Positions 415 to 34,599 of a DNA stretch of 35,745 nt are shown here, piece by piece. The number at the start of each line of letters is the position of its first letter. Position 1 is the stretch's first letter. Where the stretch lies: the NCBI GenBank assembly GCA_027717925.1, contig JALLON010000003.1:1-35745 (forward strand). The letters are read 5' to 3'. Both the position numbers and the translations under genes were made by a program. The notes under the pieces are model-generated. The model was not told where the DNA came from. It made no database searches and worked only from the letters and a program-made list of their open reading frames with translations. Source of the DNA: Acidobacteria bacterium AH-259-G07. GTDB lineage: Bacteria > Acidobacteriota > UBA6911 > RPQK01 > JADFOI01.

Positions 415-2619
415 ATGAGAATGCGGTCCAACAGAACTCTACTGGCGTTTGTGCTGGCCTTTAGCACTTTCTTGGCCCAAGCCTCGGACTGGCCAACTTG
501 GCGAGGCCCGGGTCAAAACGGCGTCTCTTCGGAAACCGGCTTGATTTCCAGCTGGTCACTGGAGGGCGAGAACTTGCTTTGGAAATCCGACTTTATTGGC
601 CGTTCCACTCCCGTCATTCTAAATGGCCGCGTTTACGTCATCGGGCGAGCGGGTGAAGGCATCAACAAGCAGGAGCGAGTGGCCTGCTTCGACGCGGAAA
701 GCGGAAAACTGCTGTGGGAACACCGCCTGAATGTGTTCTTGACCACCGTCCCTTTCCCACGCGTGGGATGGGCCAATCTCACGGGAGACCCCGAAACGGG
801 GAATATATATGCCCACGGAGTGGCGGGTTTGTTCGTCTGCTTTGATGGTGATGGCAAGGTGATTTGGCAGCACTCGTTGACCGAGGAATTTGGGCGAATG
901 GCCGGCTATGGTGGCCGAACCCACACACCGGCAGTGGATGGAGATCTGGTGATTCTCAGCCTGATCAATAGCAACTGGGGCGATCAGGCCGCTCCTCGTC
1001 ACCGCTATTTTGCTTTTGACAAGCACAGCGGGGAGGTGATCTGGGTCTCCACGCCTGGAGGTAGACCCTACGACCTGAACACCTATTCCACCCCGGTCAT
1101 AGCCGCCATCAACGGTCAACGCTTGCTCATTGGTGGAAATGCGGATGGAGCTATCTATGCCCTGAAAGTACAAACGGGAGAAAAGGTCTGGGGATTCAAG
1201 TTGAGCAAGCGAGGAATCAATTCGTCCGTCGTGGTTGATGGTACTCGGGTGTACGCCAGCCACAGCGAGGAGAACTTGGATGAGGCGAATATGGGGCGAT
1301 TGGTGTGTATTGACGGAACCGGGAGCGGAGATGTGACCCGGACGCATGAGCTGTGGCGCTACAACCAGCTTAAAGCCGGATTTGCTTCCCCGACCGTGCA
1401 CCAGGGCCGGGTCTATGTGATTGACAACTCGGCCAATCTGCATTGCCTGGACGCCACCAATGGGAAGGTCTATTGGAAATACAACCTGGGAACTGTGGGG
1501 AAGGGTTCTCCAGTCTGGGCGGATGGAAAACTTTATACGACAGAGCTAAATGGCGCCTTTAACATCCTTCGGCCCGGAGCTGCCGAGTGTGAGTCGCTGG
1601 ACGAAGTGATTATTCCGCTGGGCAACCGCACAGCGGAAATTTACAGCTCTCCTGCCATCGCTTACAGGCGCGTGTTTTTCGCCACCGAAGACGGGCTTTA
1701 CTGCCTGGGGAAAAAGGACTCCCCATTTTCGCTCTCTGCTTCTTCCCTGCCCTCTTCTTCTGATTCTAAGCCCGGCCCACAGCAATCCTCACCTGCCCAT
1801 CTGCAGATTGTTCCTGCGGAGGTTATAACGGGCCCGGGGGAAACCGTTCAATTTCGTGTTCGAGCCTACGACACCCAGGCGCGCTTTCTGGGTGAAGTGG
1901 ATGCCAAGTGGTCGCAAAGTGGCTTGAGTGGTCAGCTGGATCAGGCAGGGAGATTTCGCCCAGAGCCGTCAGCGCAGCATCAAGCCGGCAAGGTCTTGGC
2001 CAAGGTGGGAGGTTTGGAGGCCTCGGCTCGCCTTCGGGTGATGCCCGACTTACCCTGGCAGGAGGACTTTGAAATCATGGAGGTTGGGAAGATTCCTACC
2101 CACTGGATTGGAGCGGCTGGTCGCTTTTCCGTACAGCTCAAAGACGGAAACAGGGTCCTTTCCAAACCCTTTGTCAGGAGAGGGATCCAGCGCTCCTATG
2201 TGTACATAGGGCCTTCAGACTTGAAAAACTATACCATGCAAGCCGACTTGATGGGCACCAAGGACGGACGTCGTATCCCTGATATGGGATTGATCGCAAA
2301 CCGGTATGTCCTTGCCTTAATGGGTGCTCGGCAGCAACTTCATGTCCATTCCTGGGCCTCGGAATTACGAATGGCCAGGAGTGCCGATTTTCCATGGCAG
2401 CCCAACATCTGGTACACCATGAAGATGAGAGTCGATGTTGAAGGAAATAAAGCCGTCGTTCGGGGCAAGGTCTGGCCCAAAACAGAAACGGAACCCGAGG
2501 CCTGGAGTATTGTCGTGGAGGACCCTTTGCCGAATCGGGAAGGGACTCCGGGTTTATTCGGGCAATCCTATGCTGAAATCTTTTATGACAACATCAAAGT
2601 AAGCAAGAGTGAACCATGA
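415..2619 (+). CDS. Secreted PQQ-like (BamB-type) beta-propeller protein with C-terminal Ig-like and ConA-like beta-sandwich domains
   Basis: Signal peptide ending AQA-SDWPTWRGP; repeated 'CFDAESGKLLW / ALKVQTGEKVW / CLDATNGKVYW' blades; Ser/Pro linker; then IVPAEV..PGETVQFRV (Ig-like) and WQEDFE..YTMQADL..WYTMKMRV (lectin-like). GGAG at 406-409 favours ATG 415 or 421 over GTG 412. Confidence 0.85.
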   Translation: MRMRSNRTLLAFVLAFSTFLAQASDWPTWRGPGQNGVSSETGLISSWSLEGENLLWKSDFIGRSTPVILNGRVYVIGRAGEGINKQERVACFDAESGKLLWEHRLNVFLTTVPFPRVGWANLTGDPETGNIYAHGVAGLFVCFDGDGKVIWQHSLTEEFGRMAGYGGRTHTPAVDGDLVILSLINSNWGDQAAPRHRYFAFDKHSGEVIWVSTPGGRPYDLNTYSTPVIAAINGQRLLIGGNADGAIYALKVQTGEKVWGFKLSKRGINSSVVVDGTRVYASHSEENLDEANMGRLVCIDGTGSGDVTRTHELWRYNQLKAGFASPTVHQGRVYVIDNSANLHCLDATNGKVYWKYNLGTVGKGSPVWADGKLYTTELNGAFNILRPGAAECESLDEVIIPLGNRTAEIYSSPAIAYRRVFFATEDGLYCLGKKDSPFSLSASSLPSSSDSKPGPQQSSPAHLQIVPAEVITGPGETVQFRVRAYDTQARFLGEVDAKWSQSGLSGQLDQAGRFRPEPSAQHQAGKVLAKVGGLEASARLRVMPDLPWQEDFEIMEVGKIPTHWIGAAGRFSVQLKDGNRVLSKPFVRRGIQRSYVYIGPSDLKNYTMQADLMGTKDGRRIPDMGLIANRYVLALMGARQQLHVHSWASELRMARSADFPWQPNIWYTMKMRVDVEGNKAVVRGKVWPKTETEPEAWSIVVEDPLPNREGTPGLFGQSYAEIFYDNIKVSKSEP

Positions 2620-4070
2620 GACAAACACCGATACCTGATATTCGTATGCTTAAAGTGATCCCGCTAGTCGCCTTGCTGGCAGTGGCAGCTGCGGACACCG
2701 ATAAAGTGGAACGTGCGATGTTCGGTGGATCTCCGTCGCGCAATATGGCTTCCGATGAGAAAGATCTGCCCAACAAGTGGGATCCGGATACCGGAGTAAA
2801 TATCAAGTGGAAGGTAGCCCTGGGTTCGCAAAGTTATGCGGGTCCTGTCATCGCGGGTGGAAAGGTTTTTGTGGGTACCAACAACGAGGGTCTACGCAAT
2901 CCCAAGCTGGCTGGCGATCGTGGGGTGCTGATGGCTTTTCGCGAATCTGACGGCAAATTCCTTTGGCAGGCAGCGCACCCCAAACTGGCGGCGGGTCGAG
3001 TGCATGATTGGCCCCTGCAAGGAGTCTGCTCGACCCCCTATGTGGAAGGTGATCGGCTCTATTACATTTCTAATCGCTGTGAAGTGGTTTGTCTTGATAC
3101 GGAAGGTTTCTTGGACGGTGAAAACGACGGGCCCTTCAAAGATGAAACAGAGACCAGCAAAATCGACGCCGACGTGGTGTGGAAGCTGGACATGATAGCT
3201 GAGCTGGACGTCTTTCCCCATAACCTGGCCGCCAGTTCACCACTGGCTGTTGCGGATCTTCTGTTCACTCTTACCAGCAATGGGGTGGATGAAGACCACG
3301 TCACGATTCCCTCCCCTTTTGCTCCCAGTTTCTTGGCCGTCAATAAAAAGACAGGCAAGGTGGCTTGGGAAGATGGTTCACCCGCGGACCGGATTCTGCA
3401 CGGCCAGTGGTCCAATCCAGCTTATGGGATTATCCAAGGCAAAGCGCAGGTGATTTTCCCGGGAGGTGACGGTTGGCTCTATTCATTTGAGCCTGAGACG
3501 GGCAAGCTGATCTGGAAGTTTGATTGCAATCCCAAGGATTCAGTTTGGATATTGGGCGGCCGGGGGACGCGAAATAATCTCATTGCCGCCCCGGTCATTT
3601 ATGATGACAAGGTTTATATCGGAGTTGGTCAGGATCCGGAGCACGGAGAGGGGATTGGCCATCTGTGGGTCATCGATGGGACCCTGGAAGGCGACGTAAC
3701 TGAGCGAGCGGTGATCTGGCATTTTGGAGATGCCGATTTTAATCGCACCATATCCACGGTAGCTATCCAGGACGGCCTCCTTTATGTAGCTGACCTGAGC
3801 GGATTTCTGTACTGTCTGGATGCCAAAACCGGCAAGCATCACTGGACCTATGATACGTTCGCGGCCGTTTGGGGCTCCGCACTGGTCGCAGATGGGAAAA
3901 TCTATCTCGGTGATGAAGATGGAGACATCGCAGTACTGAGAGCGGGCAAAAAAAAGGAGCTGATCCACGAGGTCAACATGGGAGCGTCCGTGTACACCAC
4001 CCCGGTGGCTAAAAACGGCGTCCTGTACATTGTCAGCCGCACCACCCTCTTCGCCATCGCAGAGAAGTAG
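2616..4070 (+). CDS. Secreted PQQ-like (BamB-type) beta-propeller protein
   Basis: ATGA overlap with the upstream gene; hydrophobic leader; MFGGSPSRNM start motif; blades 'AFRESDGKFLW', 'SFEPETGKLIW', 'CLDAKTGKHHW'. Confidence 0.87.
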   Translation: MRQTPIPDIRMLKVIPLVALLAVAAADTDKVERAMFGGSPSRNMASDEKDLPNKWDPDTGVNIKWKVALGSQSYAGPVIAGGKVFVGTNNEGLRNPKLAGDRGVLMAFRESDGKFLWQAAHPKLAAGRVHDWPLQGVCSTPYVEGDRLYYISNRCEVVCLDTEGFLDGENDGPFKDETETSKIDADVVWKLDMIAELDVFPHNLAASSPLAVADLLFTLTSNGVDEDHVTIPSPFAPSFLAVNKKTGKVAWEDGSPADRILHGQWSNPAYGIIQGKAQVIFPGGDGWLYSFEPETGKLIWKFDCNPKDSVWILGGRGTRNNLIAAPVIYDDKVYIGVGQDPEHGEGIGHLWVIDGTLEGDVTERAVIWHFGDADFNRTISTVAIQDGLLYVADLSGFLYCLDAKTGKHHWTYDTFAAVWGSALVADGKIYLGDEDGDIAVLRAGKKKELIHEVNMGASVYTTPVAKNGVLYIVSRTTLFAIAEK

Positions 4071-4100
4071 GGCCCGTGTCTTTAAAGACACGGCCCCTTC
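4067..4100. repeat. REP-like palindrome (GGCCGTGTC/GACACGGCC type) between convergent genes; possible bidirectional terminator
   Basis: GTAGGGCCCGTGTCTTTAAAGACACGGCCCCTTC; perfect 20-bp palindrome at 4074-4093; contains both stop codons; near-identical arms at 10371-10394. Confidence 0.7.
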
Positions 4101-5509
4101 TGGAAGGCCCGGGCACGGAACAGGAAGTCCACCAGATTGCCCTCATGCGGCTGAAGCCAGTTGAGGTGAATGGTGGGGATCGGCCCCAGATTGAGCCGGT
4201 CAATGTGCGTGCAGTCCAAGAGCGCCCTTAGAAATCCCTCCTCTTGAGTGATTCCCGTAGCGACCAGGGTGCTGCCAATGTGCTTCAGCATTTTCTCCTG
4301 CGGACACTCGACGACGCTGACAAAGGGGAACATGTACTCGGTGTTGGCCAGCCTCCGCTGGGGGGAATCGCACACAACGACCGAGGGGCGCAGATAGGCA
4401 CAGCGCTCCTGGACGATCAGCCGATCGCCCTCTCGGTACTTGGCGCACAGGTCCTCAACACCGGACTCCTGGAGGCCCTGTTCGATCACTGCATTAGTGG
4501 CCTCAGCCTGCCCCGCCACGGTAAAGGCCGCCAGTGCGGCCTCGGGGTCTTCCGGTGGCTTGGGGGCGATGGGCCCCAGACGCTGGGCCAGGGCCTCGGC
4601 GATCTCCCGGCCGTGTCTTGATACCCAGATGCCGGAGCAGCTGATGCAGCTTCGGCCGCTGTTGATCAGCACACTATCCACCATCAGCTCCAGGTGCTGT
4701 TTCCAATCATCCACCTGGTCGTCGCCGAAGAGGATTTTGCTGAACCCCGGGCCGTGCACCTGTAGGCGTGGATTACCCTTGTACTGCTCGACAGTGGCCG
4801 TACCGCCGAAGATCAAGTTGCGTGGGCAGTGCTCCAGCACGGCCGCTCCTACATCGCCCAAACCCGGATACAGCGCCACAGCCTTGCGGGGTACACCGGA
4901 CTGAAAAAAAGCTTCGGTCATCCGGTACGGGGTCCACGGCTCTTGCGGACCCGGCTTGAGCACTAAACCAATCTGTAGCGGTATGACCGGCAGCCACAAA
5001 CCGTGAACGCCCGGGGAGTTCGACGGCAAGACCATGCCCAGTACCGGCGTCGTGGCTTGGTAGCTGCGCATCACCCCGTTTTCTTCACCGTAGCCTCTAC
5101 TCAGGATACCCAGGTCCAACCCGCGGGTAAGCGATCCGAGGATGTTCTCCAGATTTGTCAGCACATAGTGGAGCTTCTCCATGTTCTGGCGGCACATGTG
5201 TTCAGGCAGTCCCGTCGTGGCTGACTGGTACTTAATGAACTCATCAGGCGTCTGGGTTGCTTCACCGGCGGGCAGCTCGGCCCTCATGAAGAGCTCTGCC
5301 GCATTTTTGAGCATGCCGAGAAGTTCGCCGCAAGGGATCTCACGCAAGACATGGCGCGCTCGCTGGGCCTTGCGCATGTCGCGCTGAATCAGCCCGCGGT
5401 TGGCCTGGCTCACCTCGGCCAGCGGCTCCCCGCTGGCAAAGTGGACCACCTTGTCCATGTCCAGACTCTTGTAGGGCTCTCCCCAACGGAGGATCGGAAA
5501 GTGAATCAC
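4082..5509 (-). CDS. ALDH-superfamily protein, EhpG/GriD (LuxC-like) reductase type
   Basis: LPSNSP, LKPG, FGG, catalytic Cys in NSGRSC, EYMFP; HGPGFSK replaces the canonical ELGGK; GTG start with GGAG RBS; immediately downstream of the EhpF-like gene. Confidence 0.85.
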   Translation of the reverse strand: MIHFPILRWGEPYKSLDMDKVVHFASGEPLAEVSQANRGLIQRDMRKAQRARHVLREIPCGELLGMLKNAAELFMRAELPAGEATQTPDEFIKYQSATTGLPEHMCRQNMEKLHYVLTNLENILGSLTRGLDLGILSRGYGEENGVMRSYQATTPVLGMVLPSNSPGVHGLWLPVIPLQIGLVLKPGPQEPWTPYRMTEAFFQSGVPRKAVALYPGLGDVGAAVLEHCPRNLIFGGTATVEQYKGNPRLQVHGPGFSKILFGDDQVDDWKQHLELMVDSVLINSGRSCISCSGIWVSRHGREIAEALAQRLGPIAPKPPEDPEAALAAFTVAGQAEATNAVIEQGLQESGVEDLCAKYREGDRLIVQERCAYLRPSVVVCDSPQRRLANTEYMFPFVSVVECPQEKMLKHIGSTLVATGITQEEGFLRALLDCTHIDRLNLGPIPTIHLNWLQPHEGNLVDFLFRARAFQKGPCL

Positions 5510-5537
5510 AAGAATACTCCCAGGCTGCCCACTCCGC

Positions 5538-6650
5538 TCAATACACCCCTACGGTGGTGGTTGCGGCGAAACGGTGATAAGGGCGGACGCCGCTCACGCC
5601 GTCCCAAGGGTACAGATCGCAGGGCGGCTCGCGCTCTCCCTCATCCCGCTCGACAAAGCGGGGCATGAAAAACTCTTTCGTCAGCGTGCTGAGCATCACC
5701 CGGCCCGTTTGGCCGTAGTCGATCACTTTGTCAGGATCATCAAAGTCGACCACTCCCAGCACGGCCCGTGGCTGGGGAGCATAGTAAATGATCTTGTAGT
5801 TGTCCGCCGGGTCGAACGGTTTGGAGGCGGCTAAGCCCATAAGTGTGTTCCCGTAGGTGGGCGCCATGTAGACACCCTCCAGCAGCTCCTCCATGGCAAA
5901 GCGGTACCACTGCGGCGTAAACTCTGTTCCGCCGGAGAAGATACCCGTGATGCCGGCTTCTTTGATACTCGATCCTTCGGCCTCCAGGTGATTGGCCAGG
6001 GCTTCCAGCAGCTTGGGTGTGGCGAACAGGCATTTAATGTTGTGCCCGGCCGACAGGAGAGTCGCCGCCTGATCGATAACGTGCTGCTGGTAAGCCTTCA
6101 GGTGCTCCATCCACGTTTTTTCGATCAGCTTGATCACCCACCTGGGGTCCAGGTCGACGCAAAAGCAGATCCCGCCGCGGTACTGGGCCAAGTGCTCTAC
6201 CGCCAGGCGCAAGCGCCGCGGGCCAGAGGGCCCCAGCATCAACCAGTTGGCGCCTTTCGGGAAATGCTCCTCGGGCAAGGTCTTCGAGAACATTTCATAG
6301 TCGATCCGGAAGTCCTCGATATTAACCCGCGACTTGGGAATCCCGGTCGTGCCGCCCGTCTCGAAGACGTAGATAGCCCGATCACGGTAAGCCTTGGGGA
6401 CCCAGCGCTGGACCGGTCCGCCCCTCAGCCATTCGTCCTCAAAGTGGCCAAACTTGACGAGGTCATCGAAGCCCTGCACTTCCTCCCGCGGATCCCAACC
6501 TGCCTGCTGCCTCCAGTCGAGCCAGAAGGGGCACCCGGTCTCAGGGTTGAAGTGCCACTCGATGATCTCCCGCACGTGGGCATTCAGTCGCTCCCGCGAG
6601 GCGCGGGCTGTGCCTTCCAGTTGCCCGTTCACTGAACCTGGAAAGGTCAT
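5538..6650 (-). CDS. EhpF/GriC-like short adenylate-forming (AMP-binding) enzyme
   Basis: WHFNPETGCPFWL, ETGGTTGIPK P-loop, GGICFCVDLDPRWV, GGTE, YG, ERD and C-terminal GVY, all motifs I recall from Pantoea EhpF; 370 aa. Confidence 0.8.
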   Translation of the reverse strand: MTFPGSVNGQLEGTARASRERLNAHVREIIEWHFNPETGCPFWLDWRQQAGWDPREEVQGFDDLVKFGHFEDEWLRGGPVQRWVPKAYRDRAIYVFETGGTTGIPKSRVNIEDFRIDYEMFSKTLPEEHFPKGANWLMLGPSGPRRLRLAVEHLAQYRGGICFCVDLDPRWVIKLIEKTWMEHLKAYQQHVIDQAATLLSAGHNIKCLFATPKLLEALANHLEAEGSSIKEAGITGIFSGGTEFTPQWYRFAMEELLEGVYMAPTYGNTLMGLAASKPFDPADNYKIIYYAPQPRAVLGVVDFDDPDKVIDYGQTGRVMLSTLTKEFFMPRFVERDEGEREPPCDLYPWDGVSGVRPYHRFAATTTVGVY

Positions 6651-6744
6651 GATTTCATACGCTCCAAAGGCTGGGGGAAATCAGCCCACAAGTGGAGTGC
6701 ATCCCTGGATAGAAAACAAACCAAAACCACTAATTTCGCGGGAA

Positions 6745-6774
6745 ATTCTATCCCGGTGTGAAAACGGGGGTCAA
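6745..6774 (-). promoter_or_regulatory. Sigma70-like promoter of the EhpF/EhpG-like pair
   Basis: Minus strand TTGACC (6774-6769), 18 bp spacer, TAGAAT (6750-6745); about 95 bp upstream of ATG 6650. Confidence 0.55.
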
Positions 6775-6894
6775 GGAGCATTCAGAGGTGGGCCACTGTG
6801 ATTCGCTCATAGGGAGAAACTAATCAAGAGAATTATCGTATAGTGGTTGTTGATTTAACTTCGAAGGGAGTTTGTAGGCAACCTGCGATTTGGA

Positions 6895-8112
6895 ATGATG
6901 AAACAAGCAGCTGAGGGCAGACAATTGGTTGACCATTCGAGAATTTCACGTTCCACATTTGGCATTCGGCATTCGGTATTCGGTATTTCACATTCGACAT
7001 TCGGCATTCGAAATTCGACATTTCTGGTGCTGCTGATCATTGGGGCAGCTTGGAGTTTCGGCTCCGGATCTTCTGAATCTTGGATCCTGTTCCGAGGCGA
7101 CGCGCAGCTGACAGGGGTTGCGCGAAGCTCTTTACCGGAAAGGCTCAAGGTGGCGTGGACCTTCCCAGCAGGTGATGGGATCGAGTCCACCGCAGCGATC
7201 TCCTCGGGCTCCGTTTATGTCGGCTCTTTCGATAGTTACCTCTACGCCTTAGAACTGGACACCGGACAGCTCAGATGGAAGTACAAAGCCCAAGATGAAA
7301 TTAAGTCCTCCCCATTGGTGGTGAATCAGGTCATCTACTTCGGTGATGAGTCGGGCGTTTTCCATGCTCTAGATGCCCGCACAGGCCAGAGAAAATGGAG
7401 TTTTCAAGCCGATGCTGGAATCACTTCATCGGCCAACTTTGCCCAAGGCCGCGTGCTATTTGGCTCTTACGATCAGTACCTTTACTGCCTCTCAGCTGAT
7501 GATGGATCCCTGCTTTGGAAGCTCGAAACCGGCGGCTACGTTCATGCGACTCCGGCGGTACTTAAACAGGATGTCGCCATAGTGGGGTGTGACGGCTACT
7601 TTCGCCTTCTCCGGATTCAAGACGGGCGGGAAAAAATGAAGTTGGACCTCCGTGCCTATGTAGGTGCCAGCCCCGCTATACGGGACAATCGGGCTTATGT
7701 GGGAACCTTTGAAAGCCAGGTCCTGTGCATCGATGTGGAAAAGGCTCAGACTCTCTGGCAATATGAACACGCGCGACGGCATTTTCCGTTTTACTCCTCG
7801 GCGGCAGTGACGGATGATCTGGTGCTGGTGGGCGGTCGAGATAAGATGCTTCATGCTCTCGACCGCCAAACGGGTGAGAAGATCTGGACCTTCCAGGCCG
7901 GAGCCCGGGTGGACTCTTCCCCGGTCGTTGTCGAGGATCGGGTGGTCTTTGGATCCACAGACGGGCTGATTTATGTGCTGAAGCTGGATTCCGGCCAAGT
8001 CCTCTGGCAATTCGACACTGGCTCCTCGATTCTAGCTTCACCCAGCGTCGCCAGTGGTAAGCTGGTCATCGGTACCGCGGACGGTCTTCTATATTGCTTC
8101 GCCGCAGAATGA
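6895..8112 (+). CDS. Secreted PQQ-like (BamB-type) beta-propeller protein; start uncertain
   Basis: WILFRGDAQLTG, then regular blades (ALELDTGQLRW, ALDARTGQRKW, CLSADDGSLLW, ALDRQTGEKIW, VLKLDSGQVLW); the hydrophobic leader follows a heptamer repeat. Confidence 0.85.
   Translation: MMKQAAEGRQLVDHSRISRSTFGIRHSVFGISHSTFGIRNSTFLVLLIIGAAWSFGSGSSESWILFRGDAQLTGVARSSLPERLKVAWTFPAGDGIESTAAISSGSVYVGSFDSYLYALELDTGQLRWKYKAQDEIKSSPLVVNQVIYFGDESGVFHALDARTGQRKWSFQADAGITSSANFAQGRVLFGSYDQYLYCLSADDGSLLWKLETGGYVHATPAVLKQDVAIVGCDGYFRLLRIQDGREKMKLDLRAYVGASPAIRDNRAYVGTFESQVLCIDVEKAQTLWQYEHARRHFPFYSSAAVTDDLVLVGGRDKMLHALDRQTGEKIWTFQAGARVDSSPVVVEDRVVFGSTDGLIYVLKLDSGQVLWQFDTGSSILASPSVASGKLVIGTADGLLYCFAAE
6934..7025. 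repeat. 7-bp tandem repeat, about 12-13 units, consensus CATTCG(G/A)
   Basis: cattcga g aatttca cgttcca catttgg cattcgg cattcgg tattcgg tatttca cattcga cattcgg cattcga aattcga catttct. Confidence 0.85.
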
Positions 8113-8126
8113 GCAAGAAGTTATCC

Positions 8127-8155
8127 GTAGGGGCGAGCCGGCGGCTCGCCCCTAC
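8127..8155. repeat. GTAG-type REP-like palindrome
   Basis: GTAGGGGCGAGCCG-G-CGGCTCGCCCCTAC, perfect 14-bp inverted repeat; its first 13 bp recur at 13406. Confidence 0.8.
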
Positions 8156-8231
8156 AATCGGCCGCACGAAACATCAACAGACGACACAGCCGGCAATGCA
8201 GCTAAAGCGAATTCCTAAGAAAGCAGACGGC

Positions 8232-10364
8232 ATGCTAAATCTTTTTCGCTTACTGCCGTGGTCCGTGCTTTCATTGACTCTCGTTTTGCCAGCCAGCGTT
8301 TTTGGCCAAGAAGCGAGCGAAAGCAAAGAAGAAGAGGAAGAGAAGAAAACAGAGATTTCCCCGCAGAGCTACGAGGTGGTGGTTGAGGATAGTGTTTCCT
8401 ATAGGCCCTCCCTGAACACTGTAGTCATGAAGCTTCCCATCCCCCTTCAATCCACACCGGCAAGTGTGGGAGTCGTCACCGCACCACTTTTTCAAAATCA
8501 GGATGCCACCATTTTGGGGGATGCGCTCAGAAACGTGAGTGGTGTGCTGGCTCACACAGGCTTCGGGGTTCACGATTTCTTCACCATTCGGGGATTCGAT
8601 TCACTCTCGGGCGGCTTGGTGCTCACCGATTCCGCCCCGGAACCGGAGGTGACCTTTTACCACTTGTACAACGTGGAACGGATCGAGGTCCTGAAAGGCC
8701 CCAGTGCCTTTCTATACGGTGGTAACCCTCTGTCGGGCAGCGTGAATTTGGTCAGAAAGCAGCCTCTGTTTGAAAATTCCCTCCAGCTTGGTGGAGCTTT
8801 CGGCTATTTCGAAACCTATCGCGGCAGCGTCGATCTGAATCGTGTGAGCTCGGATGGCAGCTTCGCCTTCCGTCTGAATGTGTTCGGGCAGGATTCGGAT
8901 AATTATCGGGACGATAAGGATAACCGGCAGTTTGGCGTCAATCCGGCCTTGACCTGGACCTTAGGAGGCAAAAGTTCTCTTGCGGTGAACTTTGAGTACA
9001 TCAACAGTGACTACAAATCCGATTCTGGTCTGCCCTTGGTCAATAATAATCAGATACCTGATGTGGCCCGCACTCGTTCCTATCAGTCACCTTTTGACTT
9101 TTCCGACCAGGAAATCTACCGGGTGCGACTTGATTTCAACACCGTCGTGAATGATTTCCTGACGCTCAGAAACAAATTCTACTTTACCGATTTGGATTGG
9201 CGTTCGGCCGGGACCCTTTTCAGTGGCGTTTTCCCCAACCAGCAAGGCAGCCTGGACGTCTTCCGTTTCCTTTCCCGGCTGGACGATCGCCAGAAGCTGG
9301 TCGGAAATCAATTTGAAGGGCTCTTTTCCATATCGACGGGCACAGTGAGCCACAATCTGCTGGCTGGATTCGAGTTCAACCGTTTGGGAGATGAGTTCAC
9401 TCTGGATGTCGCTTTCTTACCCCCTATTGATCTCTTTAACCCAGTTGAAAGAGCCACGGAGCCGCTCTTCCCTCTGCCCGGTCAATTGCAGGCGGCAGAT
9501 GCGCGAAGTCTGGTCTTTGCTCCTTACCTGGTCGACCAGATTGCTTTGTCCGAACAGGTGCAGCTGTTTTTGGGAGGGCGGCTGGATGTCATTGATTACG
9601 ATGATAAGGCGACGGCGACCTTGCGCAATGACAGCCAGTTTAGCCCTCTTCTGGGACTCGTTTATGCACCCAACCCCCAGCTTTCGTTTTATGTCAACGG
9701 GGGAAAGGCCTTTGCTCCGCCCTCCACTCTAGTCGTTGGAGAGCGCAAACCGGAAGAAAGCACCCAATATGAGGTTGGTGTCAAAAAGCAATTCCAGGGA
9801 GGTAAGATCGACACCACTCTGGCTTTTTATCACTTGGAAAAGAACAACATCGCAATTCCGGATCAAAGCGGTGTGACCCGGCAGACGGGGGATCAACGCT
9901 CCAGGGGTATTGAACTGGACTTTGCGGGTGAACTCGCCCTTGGCTGGTATGTCTTTGCTTCCTATGCTTTTAATGAAGCCGAGCTGACTGATTTCAGCGA
10001 GCGTATTATCATCAGTTTTAATCCTTTCTCTGCGATCACGCTGGATCGCTCCGGAAATCGTGCCGCTTTCGCACCCAAACACCTGTTCAATTTCTGGACC
10101 GTGAAAGAGTTTCGGAACGGAGTCAGCGTGGGTGGGGGAGGCCGCTATATTAGCGATCAGTTCATTGCTGAAGACAATGCCTTTAAGATTGACGGCGTGT
10201 TCACGCTGGATGCTACCCTGGCTTATCGCTTTAACAATTGGCGGTGGAGCCTGAACTTCAAAAACATCACCGATCGTAAATACGAAACTCGAGGCTTTAG
10301 ATCCACCTCTGTCATTCCAGCAAATCCGTTTGCTTTGTATGCCAGGGTCGAACTGGGAATGTGA
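8232..10364 (+). CDS. TonB-dependent outer-membrane receptor (siderophore-receptor-like)
   Basis: Signal peptide from ATG 8232 (MLNLFRLL...VFG-Q); TonB-box-like YEVVV; plug motifs ALRNVSGV, IRGF, VERIEVLKGPSAFLYG, GSVNLVRK; barrel motifs YEVGVK, RSRGIEL, LNFKNITD. Confidence 0.92.
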   Translation: MLNLFRLLPWSVLSLTLVLPASVFGQEASESKEEEEEKKTEISPQSYEVVVEDSVSYRPSLNTVVMKLPIPLQSTPASVGVVTAPLFQNQDATILGDALRNVSGVLAHTGFGVHDFFTIRGFDSLSGGLVLTDSAPEPEVTFYHLYNVERIEVLKGPSAFLYGGNPLSGSVNLVRKQPLFENSLQLGGAFGYFETYRGSVDLNRVSSDGSFAFRLNVFGQDSDNYRDDKDNRQFGVNPALTWTLGGKSSLAVNFEYINSDYKSDSGLPLVNNNQIPDVARTRSYQSPFDFSDQEIYRVRLDFNTVVNDFLTLRNKFYFTDLDWRSAGTLFSGVFPNQQGSLDVFRFLSRLDDRQKLVGNQFEGLFSISTGTVSHNLLAGFEFNRLGDEFTLDVAFLPPIDLFNPVERATEPLFPLPGQLQAADARSLVFAPYLVDQIALSEQVQLFLGGRLDVIDYDDKATATLRNDSQFSPLLGLVYAPNPQLSFYVNGGKAFAPPSTLVVGERKPEESTQYEVGVKKQFQGGKIDTTLAFYHLEKNNIAIPDQSGVTRQTGDQRSRGIELDFAGELALGWYVFASYAFNEAELTDFSERIIISFNPFSAITLDRSGNRAAFAPKHLFNFWTVKEFRNGVSVGGGGRYISDQFIAEDNAFKIDGVFTLDATLAYRFNNWRWSLNFKNITDRKYETRGFRSTSVIPANPFALYARVELGM

Positions 10365-10368
10365 GGAA

Positions 10369-10397
10369 GTGGGGCCGTGTCAAGACACGGCCCCCGC
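10369..10397. repeat. REP-like palindrome (GGCCGTGTC/GACACGGCC type)
   Basis: GGGGCCGTGTC-AA-GACACGGCCCC (10371-10394), perfect 11-bp inverted repeat; same arms as 4067-4100. Confidence 0.75.
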
Positions 10398-10405
10398 ATT
10401 AGAAC

Positions 10406-10633
10406 ATGATGAAAACTTTTCCTCGCTGGATTCTCTACGTAGCAGCGTTTCTCCTCTATGTGCTGCACAATGATCTGTGGTTCTGGAACGATCCTCGATT
10501 AGTGCTGGGCTTGCCGATCGGTCTCCTTTACCATGTTGCATTTTGCCTGGCTGCCTCGGCTTTGATGGTGTTTTTGGTGATCTATGCCTGGCCCGAGAAG
10601 CTCGAGGTTGAAGAAGAGAGAGAAGAGGAATGA
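10406..10633 (+). CDS. Small 2-TM membrane protein (DUF3311-like), symporter accessory subunit
   Basis: Two hydrophobic segments around HNDLWFWNDPRLVLGLP; ATGA overlap with the symporter gene. Confidence 0.75.
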   Translation: MMKTFPRWILYVAAFLLYVLHNDLWFWNDPRLVLGLPIGLLYHVAFCLAASALMVFLVIYAWPEKLEVEEEREEE

Positions 10634-12108
10634 TCACGACAGGGGTCATCTTTGTTTACCTGGTCTTGGTGCTCCTGATTGGGGCCTTTAGTCACAAGTT
10701 GTTTCGGGGCACAGGTGAGGATTATTTTGTCGCCACCAGAACCATCGGCCCCTTCATCCTTCTTATGTCCCTCTTTGGGACCAACATGACTTCCTTTGCC
10801 CTGTTGGGAGCCTCAGGAGAGGCTTATCATCAGGGGATAGGCGTCTTTAGTCTGATGGCTTCGGCCGGTGCCCTGGTAATTCCTTGTGTCTTCTTCTTTG
10901 TTGGACCGCGTGTCTGGTCACTGGGAAAGCGTCACGGTTATCTTACTCAAGTTCAATTGTTCCGCGAACGTTGGGGTTCGGATGGATTTGGTCTGGTCCT
11001 GTTTGTAGTTCTCATCGCTCTCATTATTCCGTACCTGTTAATCGGTATCATGGCCGGAGGGATTACCCTGAATGAAATCACAAATGGCCAGATCCCGGAA
11101 TGGGCTGGTGGACTCACGGTCTGCCTGGTGGTTTTGGCTTATGTTACCTATGGTGGCCTGCGAGGAACGGCTTGGGCCAACACTTTTCAGACTCTGGTCT
11201 TCATGATTCTGGGCGGTGTGACCTTTTACGTCGTGGTGGACCGCTTGGGTGGCTTCTCGGCTGCCCTGGCCCGAGTCGTCAATCAACACCCGGAGTTGCT
11301 CATCCGCGGGGACTCCATCCAACCCTTAAAATTGTTGACCTATACCTTTGTTCTGCTTTCGGTGGGAATGTTTCCCCACATGTTCATGCACTGGCTCTCA
11401 GCCCGCCGGGCGGCAACCTTTCGCTATCCGTTGATGTTTTATCCAGTATGTATTGCCGTGGTTTGGCTCCCCAGCGTGTTGTTGGGAATCCTGGGGAGCG
11501 TGGATTTTCCAGGACTGAAAGGGCCCCAGGCCAACTACATCCTGGTCAAAATGATCGGGCTTCATGCTCCGGAGATCCTGGCGGGCCTTTTGGCAGCGGG
11601 TGTATTGGCAGCCGTCATGTCCTCGCTCGACTCCCAGGTTCTTTCCATCGGAAGCATGTTCACTCAAGACATCGTGAGACATTACGGATTTCACGATCGA
11701 ATGAGCGAAAAACAGCAGGTACTGGTCGGAAGACTCTTTGTCGTGGGTATTCTGGTCGTGACCTATTTGCTCTTTCTCATCTCTAATCGGAGCATCTTCA
11801 GACTGGGGATCTGGTCCTTCAGCGGATTCTCCGCGCTGTTTCCCATAGTCGTTGCAGCGCTGTTTTGGAAGCGAAGCACAAAGTACGGGGCCTTTGCCTC
11901 GGTCTTTAGTGTGGTCGTCTTATGGATCTACTTCTTTCTCCAGGCCGGACGGGCTGAGGATTATACGATCGGCGGTACAGGAGTCATGCCGGTCGCAGTG
12001 ATTTTGGCTGTGTCCACTGCGGCCATGATCCTCTTTTCACTTTTGAGCAAGGCACCCGATCAGGCCGTGATTGAGAAGTTCTTCCCTAGCGGAGGGGGCA
12101 GACCTTGA
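10630..12108 (+). CDS. Sodium:solute symporter (SSS) family protein
   Basis: EDYFVATR, YGGLRGTAWANTFQ, AAVMSSLDSQ, ALFWKRSTKYGA; about 13 hydrophobic segments. Confidence 0.92.
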   Translation: MITTGVIFVYLVLVLLIGAFSHKLFRGTGEDYFVATRTIGPFILLMSLFGTNMTSFALLGASGEAYHQGIGVFSLMASAGALVIPCVFFFVGPRVWSLGKRHGYLTQVQLFRERWGSDGFGLVLFVVLIALIIPYLLIGIMAGGITLNEITNGQIPEWAGGLTVCLVVLAYVTYGGLRGTAWANTFQTLVFMILGGVTFYVVVDRLGGFSAALARVVNQHPELLIRGDSIQPLKLLTYTFVLLSVGMFPHMFMHWLSARRAATFRYPLMFYPVCIAVVWLPSVLLGILGSVDFPGLKGPQANYILVKMIGLHAPEILAGLLAAGVLAAVMSSLDSQVLSIGSMFTQDIVRHYGFHDRMSEKQQVLVGRLFVVGILVVTYLLFLISNRSIFRLGIWSFSGFSALFPIVVAALFWKRSTKYGAFASVFSVVVLWIYFFLQAGRAEDYTIGGTGVMPVAVILAVSTAAMILFSLLSKAPDQAVIEKFFPSGGGRP

Positions 12109-12119
12109 ATTTTTAAATC

Positions 12120-13409
12120 ATGAGAATCGCCTACATCGCCGCTGGAGCCGCCGACATGTACTGCGGCAGTTGTATACACGATAACACGCTAGCGGCCGCA
12201 CTCCAGAAAAAAGGCCACGAGGTGGCTCTCTTGCCCACCTATACACCTCTTCGTACCGACGAGCCGAACGTGAGCATGGACCACATCTTCTATGGGGGAA
12301 TCAATGTTTATCTGCAGCAGAAGTTTGCTCTGTTTCGCCATACCCCCTGGGTTTTGGATTCGTTATTCGATCGACCGATTCTGCTTAACCTGGTCTCGCA
12401 GTTCAGTTCGACAACCAATGCCCGGGATCTGGGAGCCTTGACGGCATCTGTTCTCAAAGGGGAGCGAGGGTATCAGCAAAAGGAGTTGGTCAAATTGGTT
12501 ACCTGGTTGAAAGACTCCGTGCAACCTGAAATTGTCCAGCTCACCAATTCCATGTTCCTTGGCCTCGCCAAACAGATTAAACAAGAGTTGCAGGTCCCCG
12601 TTCTTTGTGCTCTTCAGGGAGAAGATATCTTCATGCAGGATCTTCTTGAGCCGCACAAATCGCAGGTGCTGGAACTCCTTCGAAAACGGGTGCCTGACGT
12701 GGACGGTTTCATCGCCACCAGTGAGTATTACGCCGACTTCATGTCGCAGTATCTCGATATCGCCAGGGAGAAGATCCATGTGGTGAGGTGGGGCCTGAAC
12801 CTGCAAGGTCACGGAAAGCTCCCGAAAAATACCGGCAAGAATTCCTTCGCAATAGGCTACCTGGCCCGCATTTGTCCTGAAAAGGGCCTTCACCTGTTGG
12901 TGGAAGCCTTCCACCGGTTGTGCGAGAGGCCGAACCCTGACCAACTCCAGCTCAAGGTTGCCGGTTACCTCAGCAAGCGAGACAAGCCCTATTTTAATCG
13001 TATTCTCCAGAAAATTTCGCAGTGGGGTCTCGAGGGCCGATTCGACTATTGGGGTGAAGTGGACCGCCGGCAAAAGATCCAGTTTCTCAATACTCTTCAT
13101 GTTCTATCCGTACCGACCACCTATCGGGAACCAAAAGGCTTATACGTTCTGGAGGCACTCGCCAACGGTGTGCCGGTCGTTCAGCCCCGTCACGGGTCCT
13201 TCCCGGAGTTGATCCAAGCGACGGGCGGGGGCGTTCTGGTCAATCCGGACTCGGCAGGCGCTCTGGTCGAAGGAATTCAGTCGTTAGTTGAGGATTCTGA
13301 ACACCGAGACAGGCTTGCCCGGCAGGGAAAGGAGGCGGTTCACCGAGCCTTTAGCGACGAGATGATGGCGGAAGCAACTCTAGCCGTTTATCGGCAGTAT
13401 GTACGGTAG
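12120..13409 (+). CDS. Glycosyltransferase family 4 (GT-B)
   Basis: MRIAYI, GHEV, GYLARICPEKGLHLL and EPKGLYVLEALANGVPVV (EX7E motif). Confidence 0.9.
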   Translation: MRIAYIAAGAADMYCGSCIHDNTLAAALQKKGHEVALLPTYTPLRTDEPNVSMDHIFYGGINVYLQQKFALFRHTPWVLDSLFDRPILLNLVSQFSSTTNARDLGALTASVLKGERGYQQKELVKLVTWLKDSVQPEIVQLTNSMFLGLAKQIKQELQVPVLCALQGEDIFMQDLLEPHKSQVLELLRKRVPDVDGFIATSEYYADFMSQYLDIAREKIHVVRWGLNLQGHGKLPKNTGKNSFAIGYLARICPEKGLHLLVEAFHRLCERPNPDQLQLKVAGYLSKRDKPYFNRILQKISQWGLEGRFDYWGEVDRRQKIQFLNTLHVLSVPTTYREPKGLYVLEALANGVPVVQPRHGSFPELIQATGGGVLVNPDSAGALVEGIQSLVEDSEHRDRLARQGKEAVHRAFSDEMMAEATLAVYRQYVR

Positions 13410-13428
13410 GGGCGAGCCACCGGCTAGC
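13406..13428. repeat. Partial GTAG-type REP-like copy supplying the GT4 stop codon
   Basis: GTAGGGGCGAGCC identical to 8127-8139, followed by a degenerate right arm ACCGGCTAGC. Confidence 0.6.
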
Positions 13429-13476
13429 GGGAATGATTGATGATCAGGCCCTAATGAGATAAATTCATTCTAACCA

Positions 13477-14148
13477 GTGTCACTGAAAGTATCCGACCTG
13501 CAAAAGCACTTTGGCAGTGAGCCCCACCGGGTGGAAGTTCTGCGCGGCATTTCTTTCGAACTGGGCCCGGGAGAATCCCTCGCTATCACCGGGCCCTCGG
13601 GTTCAGGGAAGAGTACACTTCTTCACTGCCTGGGAACTTTGTCCCCACCCTCCTCGGGAAGCATCGAAATCGACGGCAAAAATCCCTTTGCCTTACCGGA
13701 GCCTGAGTTGGCTCGATTCCGGAACCGGGTGATTGGTTTTGTCTTCCAGGCCCATCATCTCCTCCCCCAGTATTCTGTCCTCGAAAATGTGCTGATGCCG
13801 GCCTTGGCATTTCCCGACCTGCGTCAGCACACGGAAAAGTGCGCCCTGGAACTGCTAAAAAAAGTGAGTCTGAATAATCGTTTAGGGCATCTTCCCTCAG
13901 AACTCTCTGGAGGTGAGCGTCAGAGGGTGGCTGTGGCCCGTGCTCTCATTAATCGGCCCAACCTGCTGCTTTGCGATGAGCCTACGGGAAACCTCGACCG
14001 CTCTACCGCTCAATCTGTGGCTGCTCTTTTATTTGAGCTCCACCGGGAAGAGAAGAATATTCTAATCGTCGTCACCCACAGTCTTGAGCTGGCCGACCGC
14101 TTTCCGCGGCGTTTTGAGCTGAAGGAGGGAGCGTGCGTCGCAGTCTGA
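13477..14148 (+). CDS. ABC transporter ATP-binding protein, LolD/MacB-type
   Basis: GPSGSGKST, IGFVFQ, LSGGERQRVAVARAL, LLLCDEPTGNLD, VTH. Confidence 0.93.
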   Translation: MSLKVSDLQKHFGSEPHRVEVLRGISFELGPGESLAITGPSGSGKSTLLHCLGTLSPPSSGSIEIDGKNPFALPEPELARFRNRVIGFVFQAHHLLPQYSVLENVLMPALAFPDLRQHTEKCALELLKKVSLNNRLGHLPSELSGGERQRVAVARALINRPNLLLCDEPTGNLDRSTAQSVAALLFELHREEKNILIVVTHSLELADRFPRRFELKEGACVAV

Positions 14149-17100
14149 TCTATTTCTGGCGAATGAATCTGGCGGTGGCCCTGGGAGCCGCCGTAACCAC
14201 GGCGGTGCTGACCGGGGCTCTTCTGGTGGGCGATTCCGTCCGAGGCAGCCTGCGAGATCTCACGCTGGATCGCCTGGGCGGCATCGACTACTCCCTGGTG
14301 CCCCAAAGGTTCTTCCGTGAAGACTTGGCCGTGGACCTGGCCGAGGACACAGCTTTTAGGGATCATTTTAGGGAGGTGGCTCCTGCCATCCTGCTGGGCG
14401 GCAGCGCCACTCACGCTGGTTCGCAAGCCCGAGCCTCAAAGGTCAGTATTCAGGGAATCGACCAGCGTTTTCTGGAAGTTTTTGGACTTGGCCCGGACGG
14501 CCCTCCTATCGATTTCGATTCAGGCGGTGCAAAAAGGGTCTTCCCTCCCGTGGTGATCAACCAATCGCTTCAAAAGGAGCTCGGTGCAAACATCGGTGAT
14601 CCTATTCTAATCTCGTCGAAAAAACCTACCCAGATTCATCCGGAATTCTTGCTCGGCAGTCGAGATCCTTCAGACCTGCTGGAAACAATTCGACTGAGCC
14701 TGGTCCAGGTTATACCGGACCGCGGAGTGGGAAGATTTGGTCTTGATCCTCACCAGAATCTCCCTTTTAATGCGTACCTTCCTCTATCTGTTCTCCAGAA
14801 GGCCCTCCAGCAGGAGGGACGTGTCAATGCCTTGCTGGTAGCCCAAAGTTCCGGGTCCACCCCAGATAGCGGGACGTCGATACTACAGGAAAGCTTGCGC
14901 CGGGTGCTCCAGCTTCAGGATCTGAACTTAAGGCTGCGAGAAGGCCTGGCCTATTTTGCCCTGGAAAGTCGGGAGATGATTATTCCCCCCTTGATTGAAG
15001 AAGCTGCCGCAGCTGCGGCTGTGGACTTGCAGGCACCTTTCCAGCGTATTTTGACCTACCTGGCCAATGGTATGACTGCCCGCGAACGAGCGATTCCCTA
15101 CTCGACCGTTACAGCCATGGATCCTTCGAAGGGTGATGGCTTTGGCTCTCTGGAGCTGACGAACGGTCAGCCTGCAGCTCCCTTGGGGGAAAACGACATT
15201 CTCCTGAACAAGTGGGCTGCCGACGACTTGAGCGTGAAGGAAGGCGATTTGATTGAGCTCAGCTATTACGTGCTGGGTCCCCGGGAGCAGCTCCTTACCC
15301 AAAAGGCCCGATTTCAATTAACAGGGATCGTGGCCCTGAAGAACCTGGGTGTCGATCGGACTCTCACACCCGAGATTCCAGGTGTTCAAGACGCACAGGA
15401 CATGGCAGCGTGGGATCCTCCCGTTCCCATCGCCCTCGATCGGATCCGGCCCAAGGATGAGGCCTACTGGGATGAATTTGGAGCTGCGCCTAAGGCTTTT
15501 GTGGCTTACGCAGCAGGTCTGAATTTGTGGAGCAGTCGCTTTGGGCGTCTGACCTCGATTCGAGTCGGTGCTGCTAAAGACAGCAATCTGGAGTCGACGC
15601 AAGAGCGGTTTCAAAGGGCCTTGCTGGAGCGAATTAGCCCCATGGGGGTTGGTTTTATCTTCCAGCCGGTCAAGGAGCAAGGCTTAAGGGCATCAGCTGG
15701 AGCCACCGATTTCAGCATGCTTTTTATTTCGTTCAGCTTCTTTCTGATCACCTCGGCGGCCCTTTTGGTCGGGCTTCTGTTTCGCTTGGGTGTGGAGCAG
15801 CGGGCTCGCGAGATCGGCCTTTTACTATCCTTGGGTTATCCGCTGAAGTCCGTGCGCCGGCGCTTCTTGGCTGAGGGAGCTCTTGTGGCTGGAGCAGGCT
15901 CGCTCCTGGGTCTGGCGGGTGCTCTCGCCTATGCATGGCTGTTGATCTTTGGCCTGCGAACCTGGTGGTCGGCGGCTGTAGGATCTCCGTTCCTTTCTTT
16001 CTATGTTACTCGACTAAGTCTGATAGTGGGGTATCTGGTTTCGCTGGCCGTTGTCCTCTTTTCCATTTGGTGGGCCCTACGGAAGCTGGCCCAACTGCCA
16101 ACGCCAGTGCTCCTGGGGGGCGGCACCTCCCACCCTGTGCAAGCCCGAGCGCGCCGATGGGTCAGGGTCTTGGCTCTCGCCAGTCTGGGATTGGCGATGG
16201 TTCTCATGCTCATTGCTGTTCTCACACAGGCTACCTCCTCGGTGGGATTATTTTTTGGAATTGGGACAAGCTTATTGCTGGCCGGTCTGTCTTTTTTCTC
16301 TCTCTGGCTGCGAGCCTCTCGCCGCGTTCCCATTCAGCCCCACAGGCTCGCCCTGCCGGTGCAGATTGCCGCCAGGAACAGCGCCTGGAATCCCGGGCGA
16401 AGTTTGCTTAGCACGGCTCTGGTTGCCAGCGCTTGTTTTGTCATTGTCAGCGTGGGGGCCAATCGCCATGAACCGGGCGAAGAACTCCTTCGCCGGGACT
16501 CAGGCGCGGGAGGGTTTTCCTTGCTGGCCCAATCGGACATTTCTGTGCACCAGGACTTGAACGATCCGGAAGGACGCTTTGATTTGGGCTTCTCTGACAG
16601 CGATTCGGAGAAACTGAGCGAAGTTCGGATCATGCCCTTCCGAGTGCTTCCGGGCGAGGACGTCAGCTGTCTGAACCTGTATCAACCTCAAAAGCCCCGC
16701 ATCTTAGGCGTCCCGCCGGAGCAAATCGCTCGAGGAGGGTTCCAGTTTCAACAGCTGTCTAAGGATGTCGAGAATCCATGGACTTTGCTTGAACAAAGCC
16801 TGGAAGCAGGTGTCATTCCTGCTGTCGGCGATGCCAATTCTGTCCTGTGGATCCTGCATCTAGGGCTGGGTAAGGACTTGATTTTGCAAAACGAAAGAGG
16901 CGAAGAGATCAAGCTTCGCCTGGTGGCTCTTCTGCGAAGCAGCATCTTTCAAAGCGAGCTCTTGATCTCCGAGGCTAATTTCTTAAGACACTTTCCCAGT
17001 CAGAGCGGATATTCTTACTTTTTGATCGAAGCGCCGCTGGAAAAAAGACAGGAAATGGCTTCTCTATTGGAAAGCAATCTAAATCGCCATGGGCTGGACG

Positions 17101-31416: not shown

Positions 31417-31452
31417 ACGAGAGCACGACAGCGCGAAAGCACGAAGTCACGA
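31413..31452. repeat. 8-bp tandem repeat, 5 units, consensus NAGCACGA
   Basis: cagtacga gagcacga cagcgcga aagcacga agtcacga. Confidence 0.75.
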
Positions 31453-31456
31453 ACGC

Positions 31457-32596: not shown

Positions 32597-33102
32597 TCAG
32601 CTCCCTTGACCACAGATACGGGTTCTCCTTTGCTTAGAGATTGCCGCACCGCTTCTTGGGCATGCTGGCCTGTTGTGGTCACCTTAAAGAATTGAAAGCC
32701 GGGGACATCGACAAACTGCTGGTTCAAAGCCTTTTCATTGTTCTCATGATACAGTGTTCCGTGATTACCTATTACAAGCAAGTCGACGCGGGGCAGCTCG
32801 TGGCGCAGCATTGCCACGGTCACCAGTGCAGTTTGCCCTGCCTCCAGCTCCACCTGGACAGCCAAATGCCCGCTCTTGACACTTCCCCGGGCATAGACCC
32901 TCTGGACCTGCGCTCGCAGTACCTCCCCCGCTAGAGCTACACCTTCTCCAGCAGCAGGCAGCAGGTGTCCGTGGTCGGCCGAGACTGCCAAAACCAGACG
33001 AGCAAAAACGGGTTCCCCCAGATGTCCGGAGGAGATCTTTTCTAATACCGCCTCACGCAGACGTCTTAAATAACTCACTGAAGCGGCTTCCGGAATCTTC
33101 AC
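32593..33102 (-). CDS. Hypothetical protein resembling a stand-alone Gfo/Idh/MocA C-terminal domain
   Basis: ISSGHLGEPVFAR, VQRVYARG, LLVIGNHGTLY, AVRQSLSKGEPV; 4-nt overlaps with both neighbours. Confidence 0.6.
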   Translation of the reverse strand: MKIPEAASVSYLRRLREAVLEKISSGHLGEPVFARLVLAVSADHGHLLPAAGEGVALAGEVLRAQVQRVYARGSVKSGHLAVQVELEAGQTALVTVAMLRHELPRVDLLVIGNHGTLYHENNEKALNQQFVDVPGFQFFKVTTTGQHAQEAVRQSLSKGEPVSVVKGAD

Positions 33103-34224: not shown

Positions 34225-34237
34225 TTTGACGTACCTC

Positions 34238-34552: not shown

Positions 34553-34599
34553 GGTGCGATCGAAATGTCCGGTCGAAGGGAATGCATAGGAATGGGTGC

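Follow-up and report, generated by a model that had tools for sequence, protein, structure and literature searches.

A pair of adjacent genes, F and G, on a 35,745-nucleotide stretch from Acidobacteria bacterium AH-259-G07 (assembly GCA_027717925.1, contig JALLON010000003.1, positions 1-35,745 of the forward strand; this whole stretch is called the window) probably encodes a two-protein, carrier-protein-independent carboxylic acid reductase, a reading whose probability we put at about 0.68. By sequence and fold, F is a 370-residue EhpF-type adenylating enzyme (5538-6650, minus strand) and G a 475-residue EhpG-like partner with an aldehyde dehydrogenase (ALDH) fold (4082-5509, minus strand, GTG start). 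The genome of the source organism (GTDB lineage Bacteria; Acidobacteriota; UBA6911; RPQK01; JADFOI01) is 66% complete. Homology, conserved residues, strict co-occurrence and synteny were all observed and argue for this assignment, and a model of the F-G complex is supportive; from the sequences we infer the chemistry of the pair, the direction of the reaction and an acyl transfer to Cys288 of G.

Until now, two-protein carboxylic acid reductases were known only from a handful of pathways to antibiotics and pigments. In the present case this known enzyme type forms a very large and strongly conserved clade in hard-to-culture bacteria of soil, sediment and water, a clade that is new, very widespread and uncharacterized, with an envelope-linked context. 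What the present analysis adds is the co-occurrence of F and G, the nesting of the pair within the distribution of an envelope-gene operon, the occurrence of that operon without the pair, the complex model and the signs of transfer.

A truncated adenylating enzyme and its ALDH-fold partner

We analyzed F by PDB sequence matching, fold search and motifs. The 370-residue reading frame and the motifs quoted for it in a first-pass annotation of this DNA were all found at 5538-6650 on the minus strand, namely WHFNPETGCPFWL, ETGGTTGIPK, DLDPRWV and the C-terminal GVY, with most of their residues invariant in 31 aligned clade members. Indeed, the P-loop residues T98, G99, G100, T102, G103, P105 and K106, as well as Y266, G267 and N268 of the YGNT/YGxT motif and E334, R335 and D336, are kept in all 31. 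Residues 21-358 matched the EhpF chains 3L2K and 3HGU with an E value of 1.6e-40, the next PDB sequences reaching E 0.8. When the AlphaFold model of F (pLDDT 84.9) was submitted to Foldseek, EhpF again came out on top (E 1e-26 to 1e-28, template modelling (TM) score 0.77-0.83), followed by the PaaK-type aryl-acid ligases at E of about 1e-15, so that EhpF is the best match and other families such as PaaK stand clearly behind. The nearest solved relatives in the fold search, EhpF, PaaK, ClxA and NatL2, are all activators of aryl or aromatic acids.

The Pfam AMP-binding model matched F partially and below its cut-off (23 bits), the AMP-binding_C domain was absent from F in the Pfam search, and the NCBIfam search of F gave zero matches. 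Together with the chain lengths, 370 residues for F, 366-369 for EhpF and 423-433 for PaaK, these features identify F, as judged from its sequence, as an EhpF-type truncated ANL enzyme that comprises only the ANL N-terminal domain.

The partner gene had been described as encoding an ALDH-fold protein, and this was borne out by a Pfam Aldedh match of 73 bits (cut-off 23) and by a predicted model (pLDDT 91.9) that matches many ALDH structures with TM scores of 0.73-0.79 at 13-19% identity. We mapped the active-site residues of G on an alignment to PDB 4go3. As a result, the catalytic Cys288, the oxyanion Asn164 and the NAD-ribose Glu391 were each found in 61 of 61 clade members, and the position of the general-base Glu (Glu268 equivalent) is occupied by a histidine, His252, in all 61; the same position holds Gln in the ALDH of an ehp-like cluster and Tyr in a haloarchaeal ALDH. 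Residues 27-473 of G align end-to-end with residues 35-444 of the ehp-like cluster ALDH (23% identity, E 9e-26), the protein used in this comparison being the one of an E. coli plasmid cluster, not Pantoea EhpG. With F closest to EhpF by sequence and fold and G matching the ehp-like ALDH over its full length, the annotation of the two genes as an EhpF/EhpG-type pair holds.

G could also be an ordinary aldehyde-oxidizing dehydrogenase that merely lies next to an unrelated ligase, since its ALDH fold is complete, with the Cys, the Asn and the NAD-ribose Glu in place, and ordinary ALDHs head the list of its named matches. We regard this as very improbable: all NCBIfam ALDH matches reach at most 33 bits, far under their cut-offs, His stands in for the general-base Glu throughout the clade, every class genome with either gene has both, and the model of the F-G complex passes its controls, as described below.

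For the carboxylic acid reductase reading we propose the following course of reaction. F would bind ATP and a carboxylic acid to form the acyl-adenylate, and G would dock on F to stand in for the ANL C-terminal domain that F lacks, which in normal ANL enzymes serves the second half-reaction. The acyl group would then pass to Cys288 of G as a thioester; since the general-base Glu is replaced by His, this thioester is proposed to escape hydrolysis and would be reduced by NAD(P)H to the aldehyde. In relatives, a neighboring Fe-alcohol dehydrogenase (Fe-ADH) probably converts the aldehyde to the alcohol.

Several points weigh against this reading. F is only 30-38% identical to the EhpF-like and GriC-like proteins, and G only 23% identical to the EhpG-like ALDH; in a quick tree (80 relatives, the window and outside homologues), long branches part the clade from the EhpF-like, "arylcarboxylate reductase" and haloarchaeal homologues. 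F would have to adenylate the acid without the lysine of the C-terminal domain. His252 may in principle itself serve as a base, so that an oxidative role of G is conceivable from the sequence. The modelled F-G interface is small (22-28 contacts) and lies on the N-terminal strands of G. The proteins compared as Gri-type were those of Streptomyces plasmids annotated as "arylcarboxylate reductase", and the two of their loci that we inspected carry no ALDH neighbor. Finally, our literature searches found no biochemistry for any clade member and no paper on the clade.

Pairing of F and G, their clade and the known systems

F and G lie on the same strand with a gap of 28 nt, and a GGGAG stands 7 nt 5' of the GTG start of G. 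This arrangement makes co-transcription of the two genes plausible. The first-pass annotation had described them as co-transcribed from a promoter TTGACC-18-TAGAAT; such a promoter-like motif is indeed present at 6774-6745 on the minus strand, about 95 nt upstream of the ATG of F in the 244-nt divergent intergenic region, but a scan of 3900-7000 gave one such site against 0.9 expected from shuffled sequences, so the motif by itself is no evidence. A terminator scan (one terminator-like site against 2.8 expected) was uninformative. Contigs from two other studies, with about 95% identity, span the borders between propeller gene and G (3979-4980), between G and F (5043-5567) and between F and the BamB-like gene (5266-8119), which establishes that the gene order is real and not an assembly chimera.

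We compared 137 genomes of the window's class, 88 of them high-quality. F was present in 45 of the 137 (36 of the 88) and G in the identical 45, with zero genomes holding only one of the two; these counts take in genome G080, without which F and G are each found in 44 of 136. A species-level genome scan returned at least 600 stretches with 590 confirmed relatives, and the 80 relatives kept from it are the basis of all locus counts out of 80, in which "near F" means within 8 kb. G lies near F in 61 of the 80 loci, or in 46 of 53 when only loci with at least 16 kb of sequence are considered, and on the same strand in 59 of the 61. Sixty same-strand F-G pairs, among them those of the plasmid loci L082 and L085, are separated by -1 to 5789 nt, and 35 of them by less than 220 nt.

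Furthermore, prediction of the F-G complex gave a score of 0.67 (best control 0.00), with runs agreeing in at least 86% of contacts and a partner pLDDT of at least 90. Of 157 solved complexes 116 attained the mark for such scores, as did 2 of 215 mismatched pairs; these rates apply only roughly to our prediction, for which we used alignments of our own. The modelled interface involves residues 216, 220, 245-251, 255 and 284-285 of F and residues 15-17 and 35-43 of G, and the model supports the binding of G by F.

Natural fusions of F and G were also considered. Fifteen long proteins were found, seven of them with ALDH with or without AMP-binding and one of these also with Fe-ADH, all singletons; the three long proteins that we inspected all contain Arg/Ala/Pro-rich out-of-frame stretches, and the fusions were dismissed as frameshift artefacts.

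The clade protein search returned at least 8000 scored candidates, the top 120 clusters sharing 76-95% identity with F. The 80 kept relatives, 53-82% identical to F, come from Vicinamibacterales and other Acidobacteriota, Blastocatellia, Planctomycetota, and Opitutaceae and other Verrucomicrobiota, and in the quick tree they form one group with the window (SH-aLRT 99), with Planctomycetota and Opitutaceae nesting among Acidobacteriota. F homologues also occur on 29 plasmid records, all at less than 40% identity. No curated family model covers the F proteins of the clade. By sequence, the pair is thus a member of a tight, unnamed and very large conserved clade with thousands of database clusters.

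Among the known systems, the closest is EhpF/EhpG of the D-alanylgriseoluteic acid phenazine pathway of Pantoea agglomerans (3HGU, 3HGV, 3L2K), with which F shares its length and the truncated ANL fold. The substrate of EhpF, going by the first-pass annotation and the PDB titles only, we take to be phenazine-1,6-dicarboxylate. The EhpF-like protein of the ehp-like plasmid cluster keeps, like F, WHF..ETG.PFWL, GGTTG.PK, DLDPRW, ERD and the terminal GVY, and its gene is directly followed by an ALDH-fold gene, as F is by G. The pair differs from EhpF/EhpG in sequence, with identities of only about 30-35% (F) and 23% (G), in the absence of phz genes and in its context, which consists of envelope genes and not of antibiotic biosynthesis.

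The Pfam analysis of the 27 window ORFs detected no phz or gri genes, in agreement with the first-pass annotation. This result extends to the rest of the 66%-complete genome, where the models for PhzA/B (PF03284), PhzF (PF02567) and GriH-type proteins (PF01959) gave zero matches, GriI not having been searched for, and to five complete single-contig genomes carrying F-G, where PF03284 and PF01959 were found in none; as a positive control, PF03284 matched on the ehp-like E. coli plasmid. The annotation had also called the pair an orphan. It does stand outside any phz or gri cluster, but it belongs to a large clade and sits beside its usual companions, the propellers, a GT4 glycosyltransferase and a MacB-like ABC exporter.

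We also observed the surroundings of F homologues in two plasmid loci. The E. coli O170:H18 IncFIB plasmid (L082) carries at 4132-17173 a complete ehp/phz-like phenazine cluster with genes for PhzA/B, an isochorismatase, an anthranilate-synthase-like protein, PhzF, the EhpF-like protein, an ALDH and a nonribosomal peptide synthetase, adjoining a clbA-type phosphopantetheinyl transferase gene. On a Streptomyces angustmyceticus plasmid (L084), the "arylcarboxylate reductase" homologue of F lies within a futalosine-type mqn set (MqnD-like, MqnE, MqnC; 4823-11044), with no adjoining ALDH.

In the type I carboxylic acid reductases (A-PCP-R) of Nocardia and Mycobacterium, one multidomain protein unites a phosphopantetheine carrier with a reductase domain of the SDR type. 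They share with the proposed F-G reaction the net conversion of acid, ATP and NADPH to aldehyde; in contrast, Pfam found neither a PP-binding nor a NAD_binding_4 domain in F or G. Being compact and free of a phosphopantetheine carrier, F-G is a candidate biocatalyst.

The Streptomyces plasmid proteins annotated as "arylcarboxylate reductase" are 32-34% identical to F over 91-95% of its length. In grixazone biosynthesis of Streptomyces griseus, GriC makes the acyl-AMP of 3-amino-4-hydroxybenzoate (3,4-AHBA) and GriD then reduces the acyl-AMP to the aldehyde without a carrier protein, as stated in the relevant passage of PMC10179220, which cites Suzuki 2007. GriC/GriD thus follows the same two-protein logic as we propose for F-G, and the carrier-protein-independent acid reduction suggested in the annotation is an idea already in print.

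An envelope-gene neighborhood

Convergent with G lie the genes of two exported beta-propellers with pyrroloquinoline quinone (PQQ) repeats, both on the plus strand: a 735-residue protein with a C-terminal extra domain (412-2619; signal-peptide-like N-terminus, Pfam PQQ_2 109 bits) and a 484-residue protein (2616-4070), with 11 nt between the ends of its gene and of G. Divergent from F is the gene of a BamB-like beta-propeller of 405 residues as called (6895-8112, plus strand), with matches to Beta-prop_ACSF4 (233 bits), to PQQ_2 (142 bits) and, under the cut-off of 285.2, to TIGR03300 (208.6 bits). It is followed on the plus strand by genes for a TonB-dependent siderophore-type receptor (8094-10364; TIGR01783 291 bits, cut-off 223.5), a transporter of the sodium:solute symporter family (SSF; 10630-12108, Pfam SSF 138 bits), the GT4 glycosyltransferase (12120-13409; Glycos_transf_1 101 bits), a LolD/DevA/MacB-like ABC ATPase (13477-14148; ABC_tran 120 bits) and a 1131-residue permease (14133-17528) with two FtsX stretches and a MacB_PCD periplasmic domain in Pfam. 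The ATPase matches LolD with 260 bits (cut-off 307.75) and DevA with 172 bits, neither of which reaches its cut-off; for the permease there is a weak match to DevC.

We considered the propellers as real PQQ enzymes; their PDB sequence matches were limited to designer "Cake" propellers, BamB and, weakly and over part of the length, quinoproteins, and do not allow an enzyme assignment. At the 5' end of the BamB-like ORF, positions 6934-7024 hold a CATTCGG-like heptamer in about 9.6 tandem copies, and the true start of the ORF is probably further downstream than called. The depth of metagenome contigs spikes at this repeat, and several contigs end or switch strand there.

Several of these genes recur as companions near F among the 80 loci: the ABC ATPase in 33, the FtsX permease in 27, the 735-residue propeller in 23, GT4 in 21 and the 484-residue propeller in 18, to which are added DUF4399 in 16, Fe-ADH in 12 and a HemN-like radical SAM protein in eight. 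The complete genome G029 (locus L089) contains the gene set of the window together with Fe-ADH, all divergent from F-G; an Fe-ADH orthologue was not found in the window's own, incomplete genome.

The genes for the 484-residue propeller, the BamB-like protein, GT4, the ABC ATPase and the FtsX permease form a tight unit that is also found in genomes of class relatives without F-G (L086-L088). The permease and the 484-residue propeller each occur in 80 of the 137 class genomes, 77 of them in common. Of the 45 genomes with F, 44 have the permease and 44 the propeller, and all have at least one of them; among the 92 F-less genomes, each is found in 36. F-G is thus nested within the distribution of the propeller/GT4/ABC operon, not vice versa; since the class genomes are related and not independent, this co-occurrence is a pattern and not a statistic. 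The coordinates place F-G far from the operon in many complete genomes. We infer a link between F-G and these envelope genes.

One conceivable form of this link is a lipid-type reductase. LuxE/LuxC, which reduces fatty acids in bacterial luminescence, consists of an adenylating protein of about 370 residues and a reductase of the ALDH superfamily, about 480 residues long, that takes the acyl group on a Cys. A pair of this kind would reduce a fatty or aliphatic acid to the aldehyde and further to the alcohol, which would serve as an aglycone to be glycosylated by GT4 and passed by the MacB-like ABC transporter to the propellers, as in DevBCA export of heterocyst glycolipids. The recurrence near F of GT4, the ABC ATPase and the FtsX permease fits this scheme, as do the near-universal presence of the permease in F genomes, Fe-ADH in 12 loci and in L089, and the resemblance of the ATPase to DevA, below cut-off, and, weakly, of the permease to DevC. 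However, the Pfam models LuxE (PF04443) and LuxC (PF05893) gave no match to F or G at E values up to 0.01, and all nearest solved relatives of F activate aromatic acids. Furthermore, F-G is distant from the operon in many complete genomes, and the core operon is present in the 36 F-less genomes, so that it does not depend on a supply from F-G. Pfam of the window ORFs revealed no luciferase or LuxD genes. We consider a lipid-type role of the pair unlikely.

The TonB receptor and the SSF transporter suggest another source of the substrate, in which an exogenous, probably aromatic acid would be imported through both and reduced by F-G, with or without Fe-ADH, for assimilation, detoxification or conjugation. 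Both transport genes share the locus in the window and in G029, where the SSF copy is 80% identical; an SSF gene also stands immediately in front of the homologue of F and its ALDH on a plasmid of Halalkalicoccus, another lies ahead of F in L036, and the relatives of F act on aromatic acids. However, relatives of the receptor and of the transporter are each near F in only two of the 80 loci, an acid reduction that costs ATP would be unusual in catabolism, and Pfam found no ring-cleavage or other catabolic genes in the window. This import route appears to us slightly less probable still than the lipid-type role.

In the carboxylic acid reductase reading, F-G would be a portable two-gene unit alongside an envelope set of propellers, GT4 and a MacB-like ABC exporter, outside phenazine and grixazone pathways. 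More speculatively, F-G, with Fe-ADH where present, may supply an aldehyde or alcohol to an undescribed envelope pathway of Acidobacteriota, Planctomycetota and Verrucomicrobiota, in which GT4 would glycosylate it and the MacB-like ABC "extractor" would deliver the conjugate to the propellers; F-G would then be an optional, horizontally mobile add-on altering the product of the core operon found in 80 of the 137 genomes. We offer this proposal as a long shot, on a par with the lipid-type role.

As for the acid, we considered PQQ-like tricarboxylates, catecholate acids, 7-carboxy-7-deazaguanine, because eight of the 80 loci have a Vut_1 transporter gene upstream of F, and naphthoate, prompted by the mqn cluster; none of these is claimed. 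Identification of the acid would annotate thousands of genes and could also explain the role of the propeller/GT4/MacB-like operon.

In two Planctomycetota loci, L060 (13435-17113) and L066 (11613-15302), the HemN-like radical SAM gene continues the set of F-G, Fe-ADH and propeller genes; the best match of its product is ChuW/HutW, below cut-off. It is followed by genes for GcvH-like, DGC-domain and Rieske proteins in L060, and for an FAD halogenase/hydroxylase-like protein and a 4HBT thioesterase in L066.

Signs of transfer in the window

We finally analyzed the base composition and the relatives of the window. The GC content at third codon positions (GC3) is 0.774 in F and 0.756 in G, against 0.576-0.688 in the 18 other window genes, with sharp steps at both ends of the pair. 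In 49 other loci, the GC3 of F and G equals that of their neighbors (mean difference +0.011). In addition, F, G, the permease and the 484-residue propeller were found in none of the 14 other genomes of the window's family, and the BamB-like protein is likewise absent from five of these 14. The foreign GC3 and the absence from the 14 family genomes suggest that F-G of the window is a transferred two-gene cassette.

Two other causes of the GC3 step were considered. An assembly chimera was rejected, the contigs of other runs spanning both borders, and high expression or a bias intrinsic to the genes is unlikely, given that no such step occurs in the 49 other loci.

The right end of the window (30290-35609) has 95-99% DNA identity to a genome of the same genus, and the simplest reading is that the window holds an accessory region within a native contig, with F-G being of yet another origin. 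Transposase fragments at 28396-30144, made up of two adjacent ORFs with a split DDE_Tnp_1 and an ORF with DruA-like and DDE_Tnp_1_assoc matches, sit at the border between the part without a match in relatives and the part matching the same-genus genome from 30290 onward.

Positions 34887-35609 also share 88-90% DNA identity with two genomes from a different genus in the family and are thus unusually conserved; a 248-residue ORF within them has no Pfam match, and an Rfam search of the window gave no match. Short sequences at about 33659-33819 and at 31413-31456 are repeated dozens of times in the genomes of family relatives with 75-90% identity, and probably represent a small dispersed repeat.

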